A stretch of 45,246 bases of DNA. Source: a virus. Its lineage: Duplodnaviria > Heunggongvirae > Uroviricota > Caudoviricetes. The first letter of the stretch is position 1, and every line of letters starts with the position of its first letter. Both the position numbers and the translations under genes were made by a program. The notes beneath the pieces were generated by a model. It ran no database searches. It was not told the origin of the DNA and saw only the letters and a program-made list of their open reading frames with translations. Location: IMG/VR virus record IMGVR_UViG_2778261297_000003; one strand, given 5' to 3'. This document shows, piece by piece, positions 2,376-33,878 of the stretch.

Positions 2376-2949
2376 CGTCCGGCGCTGTGCTGGTATCTGT
2401 TGCCGTCACCGCGTCAATGTAATCCAGCACAGCGTTAAGTCGGGTGTTTTCTGGCTGCGTCAGCTTCCGCCCGGCCTGTAATTTCAGTTGAATCAGACTG
2501 ATGGAAGCCATTGCTGCATTAATCAGTGACTGGCGCTGTGCTTCTGCCGCGTCTAGTGCGGCGCTATGCTGTGCCTCGGTATCCGTCACCCATTTCTCAC
2601 CATCCCATTTATCGTATGGCGTTAATGGGGCGATAGTGGTTGTATTTTCAGGGTAATCACCCGGAACTGTGATTTCTTTGGTATCTCCCGTTTCGGTACT
2701 ATAGACAACTTCACCGCGATGGTCTGGCACATATTCCCATGAATTTAAATCTACAGAGCGACAGATTGCATAACCAGCTTTATGTGTACCTGGTGCATCC
2801 AGACAGGAACATGCCGGGATACCGACGCCGACAGCGAGATATTCAGTTGATGTAGAAATATATTCCCGCGTTTCGCCATCATAGTTATGTACGATGATTT
2901 CCCCATCATTTAAAGCGTAACCGTCTTTTCCCAAAATAGCCTGTTCCAT
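2347..2949 (-). CDS. tail fibre assembly protein (Tfa, active orientation)
   Basis: 200-aa ORF directly downstream of the fibre gene with the conserved Tfa C-terminal motif. Confidence 0.8.
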   Translation of the reverse strand: MEQAILGKDGYALNDGEIIVHNYDGETREYISTSTEYLAVGVGIPACSCLDAPGTHKAGYAICRSVDLNSWEYVPDHRGEVVYSTETGDTKEITVPGDYPENTTTIAPLTPYDKWDGEKWVTDTEAQHSAALDAAEAQRQSLINAAMASISLIQLKLQAGRKLTQPENTRLNAVLDYIDAVTATDTSTAPDVIWPELPEA

Positions 2950-3729
2950 TTATGCAGCCCTCACAATGTAGTTAAATGCAATGTTTCGCGGGCTACCATC
3001 ACCGGCGCCGGAACTGACATGATTGGTTCTATCCATTCGTTTACTGTCATTTGTTGTTCCACTCCCATCCTTCCACGAATACAATAACCCGCCATCGCCA
3101 ATGCTCAACTGCACCGCAAATACGGATGAACCGGATGAATAAACATCTCCAGCCATGAGTGGGTTCCCTGTCCATCCATGCATTTCATGGTTATGTTCAA
3201 GGATAGATGCTGCCTGACTTGAAAGCAGCAGTCTCGCGGAATCAACACCTCGCCCATCATCCCACCCGCGAATAAACTCACCGCGCAAATCCGGTAATTT
3301 TAACTTTGGGTAAGCCTTTGCCAGTTTTGGGTACTCTTCGGCAGAAAAAGGTGCACCGTTGCATTTCAGCCAGCCTGTTGGTGGTGTGGCTGAAGGCCAC
3401 GGAACAGGCACACCAACGGGTAACGCTGAGCCTTCTCCCAAACCAAGGTTTGTGAGAGCCGTAGAAATCGCCGCTGCACCATCTGATTTGATATCGGCAA
3501 ATGGGTTTGCACGGCTCAGTGTGAGTTTTTGAATGGCTTTTAAAACCTGAGTCATATCGTTAATGTCGAGCGCCAATCCTGCTGACTCTACGATATGCGC
3601 TAACTCTTCCTGCATGGCATTAAACGCTGCTGCCCGCAGCCTCGTTGCGGCAATACCACCAGCAACACTTCCATCAGTATATTTGCCATCCTGCGTTGCA
3701 GTGGCTTCGACTTGCCCGATTCGGAGCAT
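2950..3729 (-). CDS. tail fibre protein (constant N-terminus plus invertible C-terminus)
   Basis: 259-aa ORF; the crossover site lies about 93 codons in; GAGGAT RBS upstream of the ATG at 3727-3729. Confidence 0.8.
   Translation of the reverse strand: MLRIGQVEATATQDGKYTDGSVAGGIAATRLRAAAFNAMQEELAHIVESAGLALDINDMTQVLKAIQKLTLSRANPFADIKSDGAAAISTALTNLGLGEGSALPVGVPVPWPSATPPTGWLKCNGAPFSAEEYPKLAKAYPKLKLPDLRGEFIRGWDDGRGVDSARLLLSSQAASILEHNHEMHGWTGNPLMAGDVYSSGSSVFAVQLSIGDGGLLYSWKDGSGTTNDSKRMDRTNHVSSGAGDGSPRNIAFNYIVRAA
3431..3456. repeat. inversion crossover site, right (inverted copy)
   Basis: Reverse complement CTCACAAACCTTGGTTTGGGAGAAGG shares the 19-bp core AAC(N)TTGGTTTGGGAGAAG with the left site; located at the constant/variable junction of the tail-fibre ORF (encodes ...NLGLGEG...). 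Confidence 0.7.
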
Positions 3730-6533: not shown

Positions 6534-7615
6534 GTATTGAATCCCGCCAGGTTCTGGTAGAAGGCATATGGCTGAACGGCGAATGCTTCAGGCGGCATCA
6601 GCGTCATGCGTGCATGGGTGCCGTAGTCATCGCGCATATAGGTGACTTCTGCCAGTAGCAATTCAGTCTCCGGCAACCGTAAGGTGGGAAGATCAACGGG
6701 GATCAATGTGTTTGGTTCCCACAGTTTCCCGTCTTTATCCCGCCAGGAATCGATGGTTACCGAGAGCTGTTTTGAACGTCCGTACCGCCGGTTCATTTCC
6801 CAGTCGATCGCACTTTGTGCCTGTTGAGTAGCCATCAGGGTACTTTCCACAATCGATATATGTTTTCGGTACCGCATACGGGCGGCCTCCGGATCTCTCG
6901 CCGTTGCCAGAGTCACAGCGTCATAGGCCGTATCAGGCGAATACCCTGCAATTGGAGAAACGCTCATTGATACACCGACATAATCTGAAAACCTGTCAGC
7001 CATCGATTTGCGGTAGTATGCCTGCTCGACATTTACCCCTTCGGCTATCCCACTCGCCGCACGACGTGTTCCCACCCGGGTCAGTAACAGGTTTCCATCG
7101 GGCTGATCGTAGTAAAGCAGAGCAGACCATCTGGCCACCCGATCGATGACTTCTTGCGGAGACTCACCCCAGTTCAGAGTGAACTGGGGTACCTTCACAA
7201 GTTCATCAACATCCGTGGTTACGGTGATGCCGTAGTAGGATGCCAGGCGAGAAGCAATTTCAAGTGCATTACTGGCATTAATGACGTTGTTAGGCCACTC
7301 AGCTGAGCAATCCACCAGGTCCTGACATTTGCTCCTGCCCGTGGCGCGGACCTCATGGCGGGAGCGCGATAGTGCGGGTTCCCAGTCATCAACATATCCC
7401 GTCAGTGTCAGATCATCTCCGATACGAACTTCACAAGACATTCCCTCTTCAACGAGTTGACGATCTTCGTTGCCAGGGAAGTAATCCATTAGCCCAAGAT
7501 CGAAATCAGAGGGAAAACGCTCAATACCCCGCGTTACCCGGACAGAATCCCACCCCTCGATGATTTTGCCGTCGACCGTCAAAGAAACAACATCCAGATC
7601 GCTGTCTGCATTCAT
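6530..7615 (-). CDS. tail protein (Mu P / gp44-like, baseplate hub)
   Basis: 361-aa ORF downstream of the DNA circularization-like gene, Mu-like order. Confidence 0.7.
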   Translation of the reverse strand: MNADSDLDVVSLTVDGKIIEGWDSVRVTRGIERFPSDFDLGLMDYFPGNEDRQLVEEGMSCEVRIGDDLTLTGYVDDWEPALSRSRHEVRATGRSKCQDLVDCSAEWPNNVINASNALEIASRLASYYGITVTTDVDELVKVPQFTLNWGESPQEVIDRVARWSALLYYDQPDGNLLLTRVGTRRAASGIAEGVNVEQAYYRKSMADRFSDYVGVSMSVSPIAGYSPDTAYDAVTLATARDPEAARMRYRKHISIVESTLMATQQAQSAIDWEMNRRYGRSKQLSVTIDSWRDKDGKLWEPNTLIPVDLPTLRLPETELLLAEVTYMRDDYGTHARMTLMPPEAFAVQPYAFYQNLAGFNT

Positions 7616-9018
7616 TGCCTCAGTACCTTCATGGTTGTCGGCATAAACGCCGGATGCGGTACGCGCGCTTCCTGTACCAGTTCATCTGCACGGGTGGCAT
7701 CCTGGTATAATCGGTTTGCCAGCGTCAGCGCCGGAAGCGGCTGAGCGGTAGTAACCTGCAGAAGCTCGCTCAGACCAGAAGCACGCTCACTCATCGTAGA
7801 AAGGAATGCCGATCTGACGGCGAGAAGCGCGTTATACATATCATCGTCCGCGCGGTCTCCAGCCAGAACCAGCGCCGTATCAAGTTGCACAGAAACTCGT
7901 TGAGTTAACTCTTCTGCCTCGTCTGTACTGGCTGGTCTGGAGTCCGCAGCGGCACTGGTCATGGCACCAGTACATAGCACAACAATCAGCGTGTTCATGG
8001 TCGCCGAAATCGCTTTGCTGCTGTCGGACTGCTGGTACTCCGTGCTGATTGAATTAGCCAGTTTTTCCAGCGCTGTGATTCGGTCATTAACGCTGCCGGC
8101 GCTGTTAAGAATTGCGTTTACCACGTCGGCGACGCCCTGGACAAACTCATCAGGTGTGTTGGAGCTGCTAAGCTGGCTCGACCTGTCGGTAACATTTTTC
8201 CGGTCCATTACCGACTGGGCTGTTACCTTGTCAGCCAGTGCTCTCTCATCATCCACATCAGCAACTGACGATTTGCCAGCAACAGCAGAGGAACTACCGC
8301 CCACAGAGCCTTTACTGTAACGTCCGTACCGGGTATTCCCGAACGTGGAGTTCAGGACATTGCTGAGATTCGTGACCTGACTGATGGTGCTGTCAACCAT
8401 GTTAGTCCAGAACGTGACCGTGCCTCTGATGGTGTTTATAGCCTGTGTGACACCGCGGATTTCACTCTTAACCCTGGCAATCGTGCTCAGCACAGCAGTG
8501 CTGACCAGTTTCAGATAGTTGGTTTTCACCGTGGCGCCTGCAACGGTACTGCCCGTGACAGCAAACACTTTAAGCCCTGATTCAATTGCCATCAGGGTAA
8601 ATTCAAATACTCGCCCGTTCTCCATCGAACCGGAAATACGCAAACCATTCTCAGGGATGGAAACCGTTAATTCGCCCAGTGTCGGATGGACAAGCGTACC
8701 GCTACCTTTTTGTTCACAGGCTTCAATCAGTGACTGGCGCTGCGTGATAGCATCGCCGCCGCCGTAAACCTGGCTGTTCTGGATCAAGAAACCGCGAATA
8801 ACAAATCGCCGTGTTGCCCGCCCGATATCCTCTATCCAGGCTGTATCACGGTAGGGATATTCATGTACCGCCTGGCGTCGGCCGTGGCTCCCTTCCTCAG
8901 CAACAATTGCAAATGGCACACCTCTGAATGAGCTGGGCCGTAACTGCCCCTGCCAGTCATCGCTGGTATCTCCCCCCAAAAGAGAAGTTATTGCGTCCTG
9001 GATAATTGACGGCATCAC
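7612..9018 (-). CDS. DNA circularization protein N-like (Mu gp43-like)
   Basis: 468-aa ORF following the tape measure gene in the Mu-like tail order; GGAGG RBS. Confidence 0.7.
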   Translation of the reverse strand: MMPSIIQDAITSLLGGDTSDDWQGQLRPSSFRGVPFAIVAEEGSHGRRQAVHEYPYRDTAWIEDIGRATRRFVIRGFLIQNSQVYGGGDAITQRQSLIEACEQKGSGTLVHPTLGELTVSIPENGLRISGSMENGRVFEFTLMAIESGLKVFAVTGSTVAGATVKTNYLKLVSTAVLSTIARVKSEIRGVTQAINTIRGTVTFWTNMVDSTISQVTNLSNVLNSTFGNTRYGRYSKGSVGGSSSAVAGKSSVADVDDERALADKVTAQSVMDRKNVTDRSSQLSSSNTPDEFVQGVADVVNAILNSAGSVNDRITALEKLANSISTEYQQSDSSKAISATMNTLIVVLCTGAMTSAAADSRPASTDEAEELTQRVSVQLDTALVLAGDRADDDMYNALLAVRSAFLSTMSERASGLSELLQVTTAQPLPALTLANRLYQDATRADELVQEARVPHPAFMPTTMKVLRQ

Positions 9019-9027
9019 GCCTCCGGA

Positions 9028-9054
9028 AATAAAAAAACCGCCATGTCGGCGGTT
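9028..9054 (-). terminator. rho-independent terminator-like hairpin
   Basis: Minus strand reads ACCGCC-GACAT-GGCGGT followed by TTTTTTTATTT; sits immediately upstream of the N-like gene RBS. Confidence 0.5.
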
Positions 9055-9078
9055 TACATATGCACTGAAATGACTTAT

Positions 9079-9225
9079 CTATTTATCGCTGGATCCATTA
9101 CGGTCAAGAGATTCGGCGATCCTGTAAAGATGCTCAGTCGCCTTGAATGAGTTCATTAGGAACTCATAAAGCACACGTAAAAGCAATGCACTTACCACCG
9201 ATATCGTAATCGCCGTGAAATTCAT
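9079..9225 (-). CDS. small hydrophobic protein (48 aa), possibly part of an amber-interrupted longer frame 9079..9327
   Basis: MNFTAITISVVSALLLRVLYEF... with a predicted TM helix; an in-frame upstream ATG (9325-9327) with AAGGAAG RBS is followed by an in-frame TAG at 9292-9294. Confidence 0.3.
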   Translation of the reverse strand: MNFTAITISVVSALLLRVLYEFLMNSFKATEHLYRIAESLDRNGSSDK

Positions 9226-9358
9226 TGAGACAACAGAAAAAACGAGGTAAATGCCAATTACCAGGTAAACAAGCGCAAAAACCTTTGGAGTCTAAATGGC
9301 TTTTGCTCCAAAAACTTTTTCATTCATAACTTCTTCCTTAACGAAATGACGACAGTGA

Positions 9359-11218
9359 TCAGTAATTCATGGCCGTTGTTATTCTGCCATTATTTTCCGC
9401 ATTATAGGTTTTACGCTCCCCCTTATCATTGACCATCGTGATTTCAAGCTTGAGAGACTGATCGGACATGGCCTCCTTAAACGACCGCGCCAGATTTTCA
9501 CTAAGGGCAACTTCATCACTTTTCCCTTGTTGTGTTCTGAGTATCGTGGGTTCTTGATCCACGCCGCGTGATCCAGAGATAATGTCATACCGCTGCTGGG
9601 CCAGCACATCTGGATTTCTCTTCCCTGACCACCGATCATCAGTAATGGCGGTCTGGATGGCGTTTAGCAGTTGTTCCTCAGTATAAGGTTGTGCGCCATT
9701 CTCATGTTTAATCATAGCTGCCATTATCGTTTTTAATGTTTCCGGATCGTGCAGATTTACTTGCTCTTTGGCTCCATATCCAGTGGCTTTTGAGACGGAG
9801 TCAATATATGCACGAGTATTATTCTCTGATTGCGGAGCATAGGTATGAATAATCCCATCCAGAGTATTATTCCCCCTGTCACCATACAACATCAGCTGTC
9901 TCGCCATTGCAGTTCTTCCGTCGGCATCATTCGCAAAGGTAGAAAATCCGCCATTTTTACCCGTTGCGTTTGCTGCAACCCTCAAATTACCGGGATTATT
10001 ATTTCTGAAGCCAATTGCGTTATTCCTTGTTTCCCCGTAAGGAACATTGCCGCGTGCAACGTTGGATTGTGGCTGGCTGATAGCGGATAAGTCATTCTGC
10101 AATTGAATCGCAGAATCGGTCGCGCGGTAATTCGCATCGTACCGCTTTCTTACAGCATCAGTCATGAAACCCGCGTCAACCTGCCCACGTTCACTGCGGG
10201 GTAAGCTGTTATAAAGTTCCTTATCGTTCTGAATGCGCCGTAGTTTCTCAGCATCATTGCTGTTGATAAAACCGAGAGCATGAGACAGCCCAGTAAAATC
10301 ACCATTAGTGAACAGATCGGTAACACCTTCAAGGCCGTCTTTGACTGAACCATCCGAAAGAATGGTCTTAAGTGCCTTGTTTTTTGAACGTTGCCACAGA
10401 CCATCCCAGGATGCGCTGAGCTCATTCATAGTGCCGTTCACTTCACTCAATTGCTGATTTAGTGCCGGATCCACAGTCAGACCAAATTCATCCGATTTCG
10501 CCAGCAGCTTTTTCATGCGCTCACCGTCACGCATTAGCGCCAGCAATTCGGGCGTCAGCCCAAGTGCATCAGCGGCGGACTTCTGCTGTTCAGGTCGCAA
10601 GGTTGGAAAAATTTTTGCGATAGACTCCAGTGTTTTAAGGGTATTTACTGAACCATCGCTGTTTTTTTGGATTTGAGCACCAATTTGCGCCATCGCTGCC
10701 ATAACCCCCTCGTTTTTACCACTGGCAGCCTCATTGAATGCTTTGAAAATACCTTCTATTGATGCATTAGCGCTCTCGCTGTCTGCCCCAAGAATACGCA
10801 TTGCCCCGGAAAGTCGGGTAAAATCGTCAACGCGCATTCCCGCATTTTTTGCCGAGACATCAAGATTATAGGCCTGACGGGATGCCTCCCGAAATCCATA
10901 AGCGACCTGTTTCAGTCCGTAGCCGGCAGCACCGGCTAACCCCAGCGCCCCCATCTTCCCCGTGAGCTCCCCCACCATTTTCAGTGGGGGAACCATGTCG
11001 CCAATAAACTGCACGTTATCCCGCGCGCTCTTCGACATATTCTCGAGGCGAGAAATAAAACCGCTCAGTCCGTCGGCTGTTTCCTGACCGCCTAACTTGA
11101 GCCCTTCTTTAGTTTTATCTAGCTTCGGCTCCAGGTCACGGACAGCCTCATTAATGCGGTCTATAGCCTCGCTAACCTGGTCGCTGGCCACCAGCTCAAA
11201 ATCAAAAGAATTACTCAT
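9359..11218 (-). CDS. tail tape measure protein
   Basis: 619-aa ORF, Ala/Gly/Leu-rich and helical in character, located after the tail chaperone gene. Confidence 0.85.
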   Translation of the reverse strand: MSNSFDFELVASDQVSEAIDRINEAVRDLEPKLDKTKEGLKLGGQETADGLSGFISRLENMSKSARDNVQFIGDMVPPLKMVGELTGKMGALGLAGAAGYGLKQVAYGFREASRQAYNLDVSAKNAGMRVDDFTRLSGAMRILGADSESANASIEGIFKAFNEAASGKNEGVMAAMAQIGAQIQKNSDGSVNTLKTLESIAKIFPTLRPEQQKSAADALGLTPELLALMRDGERMKKLLAKSDEFGLTVDPALNQQLSEVNGTMNELSASWDGLWQRSKNKALKTILSDGSVKDGLEGVTDLFTNGDFTGLSHALGFINSNDAEKLRRIQNDKELYNSLPRSERGQVDAGFMTDAVRKRYDANYRATDSAIQLQNDLSAISQPQSNVARGNVPYGETRNNAIGFRNNNPGNLRVAANATGKNGGFSTFANDADGRTAMARQLMLYGDRGNNTLDGIIHTYAPQSENNTRAYIDSVSKATGYGAKEQVNLHDPETLKTIMAAMIKHENGAQPYTEEQLLNAIQTAITDDRWSGKRNPDVLAQQRYDIISGSRGVDQEPTILRTQQGKSDEVALSENLARSFKEAMSDQSLKLEITMVNDKGERKTYNAENNGRITTAMNY

Positions 11219-23486: not shown

Positions 23487-23510
23487 AATAAAAAACCGCC
23501 CGTAGGCGGT
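23487..23510 (-). terminator. rho-independent terminator
   Basis: Minus strand CCGCC-TAC-GGGCGG followed by TTTTTTATTG, overlapping the stop of the upstream ORF. Confidence 0.55.
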
Positions 23511-23794
23511 TAGTCGAACATTTTATCAAGTTGCTTAGCAAGAGCTCGGTTAAACAGCTCCTTCGAAACTGTCATCAGCGTGCCCATACTGGCATCTTTG
23601 AATCCGGTTTTTAATGTTGCCCAAACCTCTTTGTTACGGAGAGCATCCAAGAAGTCATGCCCCATCGCGGTCAATCGCAAGGGCATTACAGCCCAGTGAG
23701 TCATTCCGTCTAAAGACTGAATAGCACCAAAGCCGGGCTCTCCATCACTCCTGATAATCAGCCCTCTATCCTCAAGCAAACGCATATGAAACAC
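23510..23794 (-). CDS. hypothetical protein (94 aa from GTG; same frame continues upstream to an ATG at 23912-23914 across one TAG)
   Basis: Track ORF starts at GTG; an upstream in-frame ATG with GGAGGGG RBS is separated from it by a TAG at 23867-23869. Confidence 0.45.
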   Translation of the reverse strand: MFHMRLLEDRGLIIRSDGEPGFGAIQSLDGMTHWAVMPLRLTAMGHDFLDALRNKEVWATLKTGFKDASMGTLMTVSKELFNRALAKQLDKMFD

Positions 23795-23946
23795 AAATGT
23801 GTCAGTTTCACAATTGAACCCTAAATCATTTAATCGAATAATATCGGTATCAGGTGAATCCGATGCCTAGAAAGCCTCGAGCAAACCTTTAAGGTATTCT
23901 TGATCTATTTGCATAACCCCTCCGTATGTAAAAGGTTAATTTAACA

Positions 23947-25311: not shown

Positions 25312-26364
25312 TTATTCCCCTGTTAACGCCCTTATTTCCCCCACCGTCTGGCTAAACCTGTCCTTCTCGAGTTCAACGCCGATAGCCTGGCGGCCAAGTT
25401 CCAGCGCGATTTTCACGGTCGAACCGGACCCCATAAAGAAATCAGCCACCACATCACCAGGCTTACTGCTGGCGTTGATGATCTGCCGCAACATGTCAGC
25501 GGGTTTTTCGCATGGGTGTTTACCTGGGTAAAACTGAACGGGTTTATGTGTCCAGACGTCGGTATAAGGAACGGATACGGAAACAGAGAAATGCCGCCGA
25601 AGCGATTTGTACTCTTCGAGCAGCTCTGAATACTTGCGATTTAACGAATGCCACATAGCCACCAGCTGGTGGTGTGGTGTTGCCAGTTCGCCGTTCTGGT
25701 GCTTTTCGATGGCTACCTGCGTGAAAAGGGACTGAAGCTTCCGGTAGTCTGATTCATTCGGTAATTGCCACTGGCTACCGCTGAACCAGTGAGACACCAT
25801 GTTCTTCTTTCCAGTCGCATCGGCTATTTGTTTTGAGGTTATGCCAAGCGCTTCACGTGCATCCCGGAAATAAGAAATTAGGGGAGTCATTACATGCTGC
25901 TTCAGCTCGCTTCCCTTCTCAGCGTACCCGTCGCTCTTTGGTTTATACGGCCCCTGGTAATGCTCAGCGAACAGGATGCGCTCTGTTGCAGGGAAGTAAG
26001 AGCGCAGGCTCTCTTTATTACAGCCATTCCAGCGGCCCGACGGTTTAGCCCAGATGATGTGGTTCAGGACGTTGAACCGCTCACGCATCATGATCTCAAT
26101 GTCTGCCGCCAGACGGTGACCTGAGAAAAGATAAAGACTGCCGGCAGGTTTAAGCACTCGCCAGAATTGTGCGAGGCACATATCAAGCCAGCGAAGATAA
26201 TCCTCATCCCCTTTCCATTGATTGTCCCAGCCGTTGGGTTTCACTTTGAAGTACGGCGGATCCGTGACTATCAGGTCAATGAAGTTATCAGGGAGAGTTG
26301 CGATGTATTGCAGGCTATCAGCGTTGACTAACTCAACACTGTTTATATTTACAGTATTTTTCAT
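25312..26364 (-). CDS. DNA methyltransferase, beta-class (N6-adenine or N4-cytosine; DPPY motif)
   Basis: 350 aa; motif IV VTDPPY near the N-terminus and motif I FFMGSGST near the C-terminus. Confidence 0.8.
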   Translation of the reverse strand: MKNTVNINSVELVNADSLQYIATLPDNFIDLIVTDPPYFKVKPNGWDNQWKGDEDYLRWLDMCLAQFWRVLKPAGSLYLFSGHRLAADIEIMMRERFNVLNHIIWAKPSGRWNGCNKESLRSYFPATERILFAEHYQGPYKPKSDGYAEKGSELKQHVMTPLISYFRDAREALGITSKQIADATGKKNMVSHWFSGSQWQLPNESDYRKLQSLFTQVAIEKHQNGELATPHHQLVAMWHSLNRKYSELLEEYKSLRRHFSVSVSVPYTDVWTHKPVQFYPGKHPCEKPADMLRQIINASSKPGDVVADFFMGSGSTVKIALELGRQAIGVELEKDRFSQTVGEIRALTGE

Positions 26365-30613: not shown

Positions 30614-32551
30614 TCAGGCGGCTGCACCCGCCTTTTGATTTGCACATAATTCAGGAAGATTTGCTTCTACCAGCGCACGAGCGAACGGCGGCGGTACTGC
30701 GTTACCACAGCGCGCTACCTGCTTGTCTTTGGCGTAACGATTGCCGCGATAGTCCTGATCGATAACGTAGCCGTCAGGGAAGCCCTGCGCCTTATAAAGC
30801 TCATGCGGTTGCAGCATGCGCATTCCGATATCGACGATCTGGTACTTAACCCCCTCGATCGTCACCAGCCATTCATCCTCGCTATCACCGCAGTAGGTTT
30901 CGAGGAATGTCCGGACCTCGCCAACGTGCTGGCCACCAGCGGTAATCGTCGGCATAGGTGTATCCATGGTCTGACCGTCGCTGCAGGTTCCGCGCAGCTT
31001 CACCAGGTGCGACGCAACTACCGCGTGGTGATCAACAGTAGTGACTGAGTGGGCAGGCTCATCCATACCAACACCCGGCCCCGTGTAATTCCCACCATAG
31101 TGCTTCGCCAGGAACGCGCTCACCGTTGCAAACTTATTACCACCAGCAGTGACCGTGCCGAGCGGGTTATTCAGTTGAAGAACACGCGGTTCTTGCCCTG
31201 GGCGTTCGCCGTACCCCATCTGGATCAGTGTTGGAGTTACCAGCTGCGACTTACCGCCACCACCTGCAGTAATCGTCGCACTCGGTTCGTCAGCCCTGTG
31301 CCCAACACTGGCTCCAAACTGGCGGGCGATGACCGGCGCAACCACGCACGCGCGGGACTGCTTGAGGATTGTATGAGCGGGTTTATCCAGCGGGCGCGGC
31401 TTTGCCTGGTACTCACTGCCGCCATTGCCAGCCAGGAACGGTGTCAGGGCGGCCTCAACTACGCCAAGCGCATGCCCATTCCCGCCCGGGCGCGCCGACG
31501 TACCAGCGGTGACAGTTGGTACCGGCTCGGTCACTGGCTGCCCGGTGGCCCCGGTGCGGAATTTAGTAAGATGCGGTACCGCCAGTGCGTAGCCATGCTT
31601 TTTAGTGATGGTCTGCAATGGCTCTAACAACGATTGCCCGCGGAAACAGTCATAACCTCCTTTCGTCGTGGTGTGGTTACACTTCACGATGAAAGGTGAT
31701 GCGCTTTCGATAACAAAGCGCTGGATGCCGCGCGCGATACGTTTGAGCGTATTTTCCGCCAGCGGCTTTTTGCGGTCGAAGATGGACCGGGCCGGGATAT
31801 TCCAGTCAATGCACTCCGCCGCGGTACGCCATGGCGCCAGCTTGCCGCTTTGTACTTCCAGTGATTTTGGATCCCCATGAGTCGCTTCAGGCCAATGAAT
31901 CTTGCGGCCGTCACAGCGCATGACCATGAAGAAACGCTTTCTGATCGTCGGCGCGCCGTAGTCACATGCGCGCAGCTCCCGATAATCAACCTCATAACCA
32001 AGCCCGGCGATCAGCTGTTGCGCCTGCTGGCCGTGCGGCTCAATGGCAAGGAATTCACAAACCTCAGCCAGCGCAGGGTGATTCGCCGCGATCCCCGTCG
32101 ACAGCATGCCGACAAATGCCTCGAATGTTTCGCCAGCACGCTCAGGATCTGGGCGTAATTCTTCATCCAGCAGCGGGCCCCATGTCTTAAACTCTTCGAC
32201 GTTCTCCAGCATCATGACGCGGGGACGTACTGCCAGCGCCCAGCGCAGGACAATCCACGCCAGCCCGCGAATCTCTTTCTTAACCGGCTTAGCGCCCTTC
32301 GCCTTGGAAAAGTGGCGGCAGTCAGGGCTAAACCAGGCCAGACCGACAGGTTTACCGCTGGTGGCTGCGCTTGGGTCAACGTCAAACACCGACTCGCAAT
32401 AATGCAGCGTGTCAGGGTGATTCGTCTTATGCATCGCAATAGCGTTTTCGTCGTGGTTGATAGCGATATCCACGCTACGCCCGATCGCCAGTTCAATGCC
32501 GGTACTCGCGCCGCCGCCACCAGCAAAGTTATCAACGATAATTTCACGCAT
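30614..32551 (-). CDS. DNA (cytosine-5)-methyltransferase, large, with repeated TRD-like modules
   Basis: About 645 aa from MREIIVDNFAGGGGAS (motif I); SPDC..FS.AKG (motif IV-like), MLENV (motif VI), RKRFFMV (motif VIII), CGNAV (motif X); four TxTAGG-containing repeats between motifs VIII and X. Confidence 0.8.
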   Translation of the reverse strand: MREIIVDNFAGGGGASTGIELAIGRSVDIAINHDENAIAMHKTNHPDTLHYCESVFDVDPSAATSGKPVGLAWFSPDCRHFSKAKGAKPVKKEIRGLAWIVLRWALAVRPRVMMLENVEEFKTWGPLLDEELRPDPERAGETFEAFVGMLSTGIAANHPALAEVCEFLAIEPHGQQAQQLIAGLGYEVDYRELRACDYGAPTIRKRFFMVMRCDGRKIHWPEATHGDPKSLEVQSGKLAPWRTAAECIDWNIPARSIFDRKKPLAENTLKRIARGIQRFVIESASPFIVKCNHTTTKGGYDCFRGQSLLEPLQTITKKHGYALAVPHLTKFRTGATGQPVTEPVPTVTAGTSARPGGNGHALGVVEAALTPFLAGNGGSEYQAKPRPLDKPAHTILKQSRACVVAPVIARQFGASVGHRADEPSATITAGGGGKSQLVTPTLIQMGYGERPGQEPRVLQLNNPLGTVTAGGNKFATVSAFLAKHYGGNYTGPGVGMDEPAHSVTTVDHHAVVASHLVKLRGTCSDGQTMDTPMPTITAGGQHVGEVRTFLETYCGDSEDEWLVTIEGVKYQIVDIGMRMLQPHELYKAQGFPDGYVIDQDYRGNRYAKDKQVARCGNAVPPPFARALVEANLPELCANQKAGAAA

Positions 32552-33878
32552 TGACGGCCCCCTGCATGCTGTTGAAGAGACCACCAGCGGTCGTGATAAT
32601 TTCACTCGTCGGCATACGTTCGAGCCACAGCTGGTTGATATTGGCTTTCAGCTTGTTCTGCTGCGAAACAGGTAGAGCGTCAGCCCCTTCAATCTGGTTA
32701 AACACCAGTCCAACCTCAAGAGGCCAAACGCGCGATTCGTTTAACGCCTTGTCCTTTGATTCCTGCGTCTCACGGACATGGGCGCGGATCCCCCGAATAT
32801 TTGACCATTTGGCTTTATCCAGGCTTTCCATGGTCGCGATGAATTCACTGTGGTTAATGCCGTATTCTTTCGCAGACTCAACGGCAACCGTGCGTAACCG
32901 CTCTGACATGTCTTGTTTCACGTCATCGCTATCAAAGGGCAATGTTTCCAGCCATGCATTAACACCCACCAGGATGCTCTCGCTGATCAGCTTTTTCGCT
33001 CTGTCGATCGTCAGCGGTGAAACATTGGTAAATTCAGGGTTTTCCAGAGAGTCGGCAGCCCAGGTATGACCAAACTTTGACTCGCTGAAGGTGTACTCGT
33101 CTTTCTTGCCGAACGCCGCGACAACACAGGCCCAAGCCTCTACACCGCTGGTTTCCAGAATGGCTTTTTGGGTTAATGGCAGTTCTGCCTCTGATTTCTC
33201 CGGCACTACCTCAGCGTCCAGCTCCGGCGCCGCATCAGTTTGCGTTCTTCCCACGGCAAATTGGGCCAGCGACATCGCAGCACGGCCTTTGGCCTCCAGG
33301 TCGGTGCGGTTGATGTAACTGAAACGCTCACCCCGCCATGTTTTGTCGAAGACCACGATAGCGCCAGCAAAAAATGCGCTGGTGGGCTGCTGCTTTTCGT
33401 CTTTCGGCACGAACCATGTAGGAAGATCGAAACCAATTCGGCCACGGATGAATGTGACGTGATCTGCCTCTTCCGGCCACCACGTCTCACTCGTCGCAGA
33501 CTTAATGAGAAAAACGTACCGTCCACCCTTTTCTCGCATTGCCATAGCGTGGTTAATGATGTGGGTCATTCCGGTAACGGCCTGCTTGTCGTGGTACTGA
33601 GAGCGGCTGTAAGGCGGGTTGCCAAACCCGGCACCACCGAGTTCTGCCAGACGCTCTGACCAATCCTGCGTCAGGGCATTATTTTCAGCCGTGTACCAGG
33701 TTGGGCACTTCGCGTTGCTGTCGTCGGCAAAAAGGTCCAACACCAGAGGGCCGAACATCGCATTGATACCCCAAAACAACAGATCCGGAGTGCGCCATTG
33801 ATCGCCGACCTCTTTCAACTCATGGGCTGGTTTTGAACGCAGTTCAGCCAGCGCGCGGCAGTATTTGCTTTCAATCAT
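32544..33878 (-). CDS. phage Dam-type N6-adenine methyltransferase (NPPY) fused to a 270-aa C-terminal domain of unknown function
   Basis: N-terminal region WRTPDLLF...GFGNPPYS matches phage Dam family; C-terminal extension has no recognised motifs. Confidence 0.7.
   Translation of the reverse strand: MIESKYCRALAELRSKPAHELKEVGDQWRTPDLLFWGINAMFGPLVLDLFADDSNAKCPTWYTAENNALTQDWSERLAELGGAGFGNPPYSRSQYHDKQAVTGMTHIINHAMAMREKGGRYVFLIKSATSETWWPEEADHVTFIRGRIGFDLPTWFVPKDEKQQPTSAFFAGAIVVFDKTWRGERFSYINRTDLEAKGRAAMSLAQFAVGRTQTDAAPELDAEVVPEKSEAELPLTQKAILETSGVEAWACVVAAFGKKDEYTFSESKFGHTWAADSLENPEFTNVSPLTIDRAKKLISESILVGVNAWLETLPFDSDDVKQDMSERLRTVAVESAKEYGINHSEFIATMESLDKAKWSNIRGIRAHVRETQESKDKALNESRVWPLEVGLVFNQIEGADALPVSQQNKLKANINQLWLERMPTSEIITTAGGLFNSMQGAVNA

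Follow-up and report, generated by a model that had tools for sequence, protein, structure and literature searches.

Probable amber inactivation of an optional gene for a predicted small membrane protein in the tail operon of a temperate myovirus prophage

Introduction

Among described phage systems, the gp15 moron of HK97 encodes a small inner-membrane protein by which the genome entry of superinfecting phages is blocked (Cumby et al. 2012, in PMC3594210). In the account given in that source, which follows Juhala et al. 2000, morons are judged by extra DNA, base composition, a promoter, a terminator and expression from the repressed prophage. A second point of comparison is gp19 of the Edwardsiella phage GF-2 (YP_009126622.1), an intact protein of 80 aa whose gene comes directly behind that of the tape-measure / lytic tail protein. 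A literature search returned no publication on DUF4282 or DUF2513, the two families to which the proteins treated here are related.

The locus of this study lies in a 45,246-nt stretch of DNA from a virus of the Caudoviricetes (IMG/VR record IMGVR_UViG_2778261297_000003), which is called the window throughout and is meant at its full length; positions are those of the window unless another locus (L) is named. As in GF-2, a small gene follows the tape-measure gene, and the product it would encode shares 35-36% identity with gp19 (pairwise E 6e-11). It also resembles DUF4282 and PHROG 12129 in its length of about 80 aa, its two hydrophobic helices and its conserved C-terminal motif. An earlier note on the window, made from the letters of the sequence, had pointed to an early in-frame TAG in this gene and had offered an inactivated moron, a leader peptide and stop-codon read-through as explanations. 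Here, the gene is compared with its alleles, its homologues and the junctions of related prophages.

Results

By its gene content, the host element is a temperate myovirus prophage with a Mu-type contractile-tail module. The sister-locus gene order is sheath, tube, chaperone, tape measure, N, gp44-like hub, Phage_Mu_Gp45, GP46 and Baseplate_J. A designation of the whole element as a Mu-like prophage was rejected, since the tail module alone is of the Mu type. The 663-aa protein encoded at 30614-32605 (minus strand) carries a C-5 cytosine methylase domain and is not a transposase, the 350-aa protein encoded at 25312-26364 (minus strand) carries an N6/N4 methylase domain, and the sister locus L016 encodes a large terminase of the lambda GpA type. 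Judged from its genes, the prophage is a mosaic and not Mu-like overall.

The AT-rich gap that the earlier note had reported in the tail operon was found to be real. It spans 9019-9358 (about 340-343 bp) and has a GC content of 40.6%, compared with 48.4% in the tape-measure gene, 53.7% in N and 51.3% in the whole window, so that its base composition differs from that of both flanking genes, as is expected of a moron. The gap is bounded upstream by the tape-measure gene (9359-11218, minus strand), an open reading frame that ends with a TGA at 9361-9359, and downstream by the gene of an N-like DNA-circularisation / baseplate protein (7612-9015, minus strand; PF07157 DNA_circ_N, E 2.8e-30; WP_001139208.1 in PGAP). 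For N, a GTG at 9018 and an ATG at 9015 are start candidates, and PGAP picks the ATG in identical genomes. The tape-measure protein shares 68% identity over 383 aligned residues with the annotated tape-measure protein of phiNP, an active temperate phage (PMC6456863). A 642-aa tape-measure homologue gave a faint match to PF10145, and no Pfam match was obtained for the tape-measure protein of the window.

Within the gap, a gene of 82 codons extends on the minus strand from the ATG at 9327 to its natural stop, a TAG at 9081-9079, and appears to be a pseudogene in the window (9327-9079 with the stop). The strong ribosome-binding site and the ATG at 9327-9325 could be read directly from the sequence, as the earlier note had it; the Shine-Dalgarno motif AAGGAAG (9339-9333, minus strand) lies 5 nt 5' of the ATG and is invariant in all aligned alleles. 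Two starts overlap in ATGAATG (9321-9327, minus strand), where the first ATG at 9327 is the start of the family and the second at 9323 opens the +1 frame. Eleven sense codons (MNEKVFGAKAI) are followed by the in-frame TAG as codon 12 (9294-9292), then by 22 open codons (9291-9226) and, in the same frame, by an ATG-initiated ORF of 48 codons (9225-9079), in full agreement with the original description. Just 3' of the amber codon stands a run of five T (T5; 9277-9281, minus strand), which is a T6 run in alleles from Enterobacter and metagenomes. Codon 27 (9247-9249, minus strand) is TAC (Tyr) and marks the sub-lineage of the window; elsewhere it is TTC (Phe) in most amber and intact alleles and TGC (Cys) at two loci.

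A sigma-70-like element, ATGATA-17-TATAAT (9401-9429, minus strand), overlaps the last part of the tape-measure gene and lies within it. It agrees at 10 of 12 positions, the count of such sites is two against 1.2 expected from shuffles, and no such site occurs upstream of the orthologue in L048. As the element neither exceeds the shuffle expectation nor is conserved, it is weak evidence for an independent promoter.

In the RefSeq records L001-L003, which carry the amber allele, PGAP annotates nothing across the whole gap, neither a pseudogene nor the 48-aa ORF. With the gap left blank, the cassette is invisible to protein-based surveys of those genomes.

When the TAG was read through, the 82-aa product matched PHROG 12129 (phrog_12129) in a profile search with an E-value of 7e-11 and 43.2 bits, and residues 6-77 were aligned to profile positions 2-77 of 79. 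Since the homology continues across the stop, the arrangement is more than chance. Intact 82-aa proteins in public data share 95% identity with it over 100% of the length, and P0001-P0004, which come from Enterobacter roggenkampii, E. coli and metagenomes, all read GAKAIWTPKVF at this site. Against the Pfam family DUF4282 (PF14110), the window protein reached 21-22 bits (E 2e-4 to 5e-4), which is under the gathering cut-off of 27 bits and places it as a divergent branch of DUF4282. The match to this family was found at E <= 0.01 in all 10 of the 10 aligned family members, with a best E-value of 2.1e-7, and P0012 carries a precomputed PF14110 match.

The 82-aa product has hydropathy maxima at residues 15-34 and 37-58; for the intact allele P0001, AlphaFold modelled helices at 3-34 and 37-76 with a mean pLDDT of 80.9. 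The hydrophobic membrane ORF proposed earlier is thereby upheld and takes the form of a hairpin of two hydrophobic helices. The intact product is accordingly modelled as a small two-helix membrane protein, with a predicted insertion into the inner membrane. Its C-terminal polar tail carries the motif LRVLYEFLMSSFKATEHLYRIAE, which is almost invariant among homologues, and 28 columns are invariant across nine proteins reaching down to 51% identity. Orthologue pairs gave pN values of 0.27-0.28 against pS values of 0.76-0.80, the latter being saturated. With pN far below pS between orthologues, the intact gene is a real coding gene under purifying selection. Searched against viral structures, the AlphaFold model gave no fold match at E <= 0.001, a two-helix hairpin being poorly discriminating, and PADLOC and NCBIfam gave no match for either the small membrane protein or the DUF2513 protein described below.

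In DNA alignments, intact loci that are otherwise 95-98% identical show TGG (Trp) exactly at the position of the window's TAG. With TGG in such near-identical alleles, the TAG is a single G-to-A nonsense mutation, W12amber (codon 12, 9292-9294, minus strand). The site thus proved to be a sense codon in homologous prophages, either TGG or, in a revertant, TAT (Tyr), and the short upstream ORF and the downstream ORF form one protein in a conserved frame in the intact homologues. At codon 12, orthologues further away (51-73% identity) encode W or L (TTG/CTA), and gp19 of GF-2 has I.

Among complete E. coli genomes, 22 hold the cassette, some of them as duplicate records of one strain. Over an 81-nt probe that takes in the starts, the amber codon and the T5 tract, 21 are identical to the window, and NCTC9040 has TAT. 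Among 30 close IMG/VR loci, about 25 carry TAG/T5, three carry TAT, one carries TGG and one TAG/T6. The type strain of Citrobacter youngae also has TAG/T5; it provided the one locus in a scan of species-representative genomes, a yield that says little about distribution. The amber is thus the majority allele, and few further lesions occur in the ORF. Given this majority status and the scarcity of lesions, a role of the TAG state itself is conceivable. N59 is common to the TAG, TAT and T6 alleles, and TGG alleles have T59; with N59 shared, the shortest path leads from TGG over TAG to TAT.

In the T6 allele, which was found in at least 19 contigs (Enterobacter cloacae assemblies and metagenomes), the TAG is retained, and one T more in the GGTTTTTG tract brings the +1 frame, opened by the second ATG, into the main frame (L010-L013, L045). 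The product has 81 aa with a new N-terminus of 15 residues, keeps both helices intact and uses the same Shine-Dalgarno motif; P0006 starts with MKKFLEQKPFRLQRFF, as expected from the second ATG, and then enters the main frame. The second ATG is used only in this rescue allele and is missing in the distant orthologues L047 and L048. The TAT allele encodes the intact W12Y protein WP_023157309.1 (L015 2509-2757, E. coli NCTC9040; L017-L019). The frame was hence reopened twice on the amber haplotype, by TAG-to-TAT and by T5-to-T6, and the two frame-restoring derivatives suggest that expression can be advantageous. In the record of NCTC9040, the tape-measure gene is split into two CDSs, which may be a real frameshift or an indel error of long reads.

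The other changes on the amber background, F27Y (in the window), F27C, T64S and a loss of the natural stop, are all non-synonymous, a pattern that fits relaxed constraint in numbers too small for proof. Sense restoration accounts for one of five substitution events on this background, which has a chance of about 5% by a rough count on small numbers, since sense would be restored by 8 of the 747 single substitutions that the ORF allows. The stop loss was seen in L020 and L046 (IMG/VR), where the natural stop, codon 83, is changed from TAG to CAG (window 9079-9081). Beyond 9079-9081, no stop interrupts this frame of the window across the hairpin, and the start of N shares its phase (9327 - 9018 = 309). 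These alleles would read on into N; as a lesion in a dead gene, the change probably has no meaning.

The cargo segment, consisting of the ribosome-binding site and the ORF, measures about 280 bp (approximately 9075-9352, minus strand; its boundaries are approximate because the flanks diverge in the alignment). It is absent from the sister prophages OW1E2, AW1.7 and ECCWS199. E. coli OW1E2 has an identical N protein (WP_001139208.1), but no more than about 67 bp separate its tape-measure gene from N; AW1.7 and ECCWS199 resemble it, and the N gene of all three is 98.5-100% identical to that of the window. The corresponding gap in phiNP is 33 bp. As it is missing from these three prophages and from phiNP, the segment is extra DNA in the sense of the moron definition. 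At the same spot, E. coli GN05064 (L055 406-1140) and ABWA45 (L056 644-1141) carry unrelated hypothetical genes of 244 and 165 aa, respectively, and L047 has an extra ORF of 194 aa (2844-3428) at the junction, with a hydrophobic, signal-peptide-like N-terminus. The small gene itself is also found directly after the tape-measure gene in L047, L048 and the Edwardsiella phage GF-2. L048 shows the order tape measure, small gene (79 aa), hairpin and N, and its identities to the window are 84% for the tape-measure protein, 79% for N and 58% for the small protein; apart from the additional 194-aa ORF, L047 is arranged likewise.

A hairpin with a T-run of the rho-independent type (9055-9027, minus strand; nine pairs, five of them G-C, with a loop of 3) lies just 5' of the ribosome-binding site of N. 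In the junction alignment with OW1E2, AW1.7 and ECCWS199, the hairpin, the T-run and the N ribosome-binding site are identical with or without the gene, and a similar hairpin occurs in phiNP, L047 and L048. Being identical in prophages without the gene, the terminator is backbone and not part of the insert. The hairpin that the earlier note had placed after the ORF is therefore present, whereas its assignment to the insert does not hold, and the terminator of its own by which a moron is judged was not found. The conservation of the hairpin suggests that this Mu-type tail module has a conserved site of interruption or attenuation where the tape-measure unit gives way to the baseplate genes. In every relative examined, a hairpin stands directly 5' of N (also in L052-L054 at about 1165-1195 and in L014 at 2476-2496).

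A second amber pseudogene, of the DUF2513 family, is located downstream of the lysis cassette (23510-23914, minus strand). It starts with the ATG at 23914, has a TAG as codon 16 at 23869-23867 and ends with a stop at 23512-23510, followed by the hairpin CCGCC-TACG-GGCGG and T6. The 134-aa read-through product matches DUF2513 with 39.5 bits (E 7.5e-10), above the gathering cut-off of 29.6 bits, and its match to phrog_585 (E 1e-27) runs past the TAG and covers positions 1-127 of 128. More than 100 intact DUF2513 homologues read LLEAFEASDS here, with Glu (GAG) at codon 16, and a Shigella-type allele differs from the window by GAG for TAG at this codon and by two other bases. The TAG occurs in 4 of the 22 complete E. 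coli genomes with the gene, for which PGAP gives only a truncated product of 91 aa; in the other 18, the DUF2513 gene of PGAP spans the probed site. The recurrence of the arrangement at 23510-23914, as claimed by the earlier note, was thus seen again, but a shared mechanism was not, the gene being unrelated and the GAG-to-TAG change separate and rarer. The second change is a G-to-T transversion, in another gene and at another depth in the tree; by the alleles compared, the ambers are independent events that co-occur in the lineage of the window.

Discussion

The locus is best read as a small optional membrane-protein gene inactivated by W12amber, and thus as the ordinary decay of dispensable prophage cargo, a reading to which we assign a probability of about 0.85. 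The inactivated moron that was among the first suggestions is essentially right in this form, that of an optional cargo gene with one TGG-to-TAG nonsense mutation. With the TAG at codon 12, translation from the ATG at 9327 would end after 11 residues. No ribosome-binding site serves the 48-codon ORF from the ATG at 9225, and its product would be without the first helix, so that the gene would be effectively off. In its intact state, the gene, which has a Shine-Dalgarno motif of its own, would be the last of the sheath-tube-chaperone-tape-measure transcription unit; with its position upstream of the backbone terminator, the last place in the tape-measure unit is the simplest reading. The prophage lineage with the null allele has spread widely, fitting a gene that would be unneeded for virion production.

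The abundance of the amber and its two restored derivatives could also be read as a heritable polymorphism, in which the amber would be the OFF state of a protein guarding the inner membrane when phages with related tape-measure proteins inject their DNA; selection would favour OFF during the spread of the prophage, and ON would repeatedly be regained via TAT or T6. We regard this as very unlikely.

A more mechanical form of the same idea, a reversible switch made up of the amber, the T5 tract and ATGAATG, is highly improbable, and this judgement covers both of its variants. In the first, replication slippage from T5 to T6 would turn the protein on in some lysogens; in the other, the ribosome would slip by -1 on GGTTTTTG from the frame of the second ATG. 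The T6 allele in at least 19 contigs, giving an 81-aa protein with both helices, is what such a switch would produce. However, five T make a short run for a contingency locus, each clade is fixed for either T5 or T6 with no mixture of the two, L047 and L048 do without the second ATG, and no canonical X XXY YYZ slippery heptamer stands at the site. The TAT allele adds that ordinary point reversion also occurs.

It is just as improbable that the stop deliberately keeps a membrane protein of potential toxicity at trace levels, whether UAG is read through naturally or decoded by an amber suppressor of the host. Within the family, only one haplotype has the TAG, and the codon of homologues specifies W, L, I or Y, which leaves the read-through option of the earlier note unsupported, even though the stop is early and the remaining ORF is open in most copies. 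A second gene of the same prophage likewise has an early TAG, but this one is a separate transversion in 4 of 22 genomes, so that the two ambers make no system. The alleles that restore full expression persist, and the protein is therefore not too toxic. No tRNA gene was found within the window, and TAG is an ordinary stop there: it ends 6 of the 51 long ORFs in the window, and it also closes the small gene, exactly where the intact homologues stop. Recoding of TAG, or a suppressor encoded by the phage, was rejected on the same absence of a tRNA gene from the window, on the ordinary use of TAG as a stop and on its lack of conservation among homologues. No Rfam family was found above threshold anywhere in the window.

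Next to no credence can be given to an 11-codon regulatory upstream ORF in front of a functional single-helix protein of 48 aa made from the ATG at 9225. Gene callers do report the 48-aa product (P0011, 16 contigs), yet no Shine-Dalgarno motif precedes this ATG (GTTGTCTCAATG), and PGAP leaves the gap unannotated. The Met at 9225 is internal to the family and unconserved, with Phe in L048 and a difference in GF-2 as well. In every intact homologue, one continuous protein begins with the conserved residues of these 11 codons, and the leader peptide of the earlier note is accordingly unsupported. A sequencing or assembly artefact at the TAG has a negligible chance, as 21 complete E. coli genomes, produced by many laboratories on many platforms, share this very TAG with about 25 IMG/VR contigs and the assembly of the Citrobacter type strain.

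For the inactivated cargo gene, the question of function concerns the intact protein. By analogy, the best candidate is an inner-membrane function that would benefit the lysogen. Superinfection exclusion, by blocking the DNA entry of related phages, is a possible but doubtful form of this function, which we infer only from the size of the protein, its membrane topology and its position beside the tape-measure gene. BLASTP of the window protein against HK97 gp15 gave no alignment at E <= 100. With no similarity to gp15, no match in PADLOC or NCBIfam and no informative fold match, exclusion is put forward as a hypothesis.

Beyond the annotation of a DUF4282-like/phrog_12129 nonsense pseudogene and of a DUF2513 pseudogene, the finding has little wider meaning. 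The tape-measure/N junction of this family of Mu-type tail modules emerges as a hot spot for cargo upstream of a conserved terminator. The natural series of TGG, TAG, TAT and TAG with T6 provides a ready on/off set with which this membrane-protein family could be tested, for example for superinfection exclusion.

As far as the moron is described in PMC3594210, HK97 gp15 and the window gene are both short AT-rich add-ons of the tail operon, placed beside the tape-measure gene with a terminator after them, and both products are small inner-membrane proteins, here by prediction, that are dispensable for the virion. In that description, gp15 lies upstream of the tape-measure gene and is YebO-related, whereas the window gene lies downstream and its protein is DUF4282-like. 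Unlike gp15 as presented there, the window copy is knocked out, has a terminator that belongs to the backbone and would have its exclusion role by analogy. The Edwardsiella phage GF-2 shares the place after the tape-measure gene but differs in its tape-measure protein (about 25% identity, E non-significant), in its very distant tail module, in the Ile at the position of the window's TAG and in the cargo that follows, which is Arc-like and Ant instead of N. Ordinary prophage nonsense pseudogenes likewise show a stop by a single base, a non-essential gene, a hitch-hiking allele and a blank annotation, and the window gene is unlike them in the two independent frame-restoring derivatives on its haplotype.
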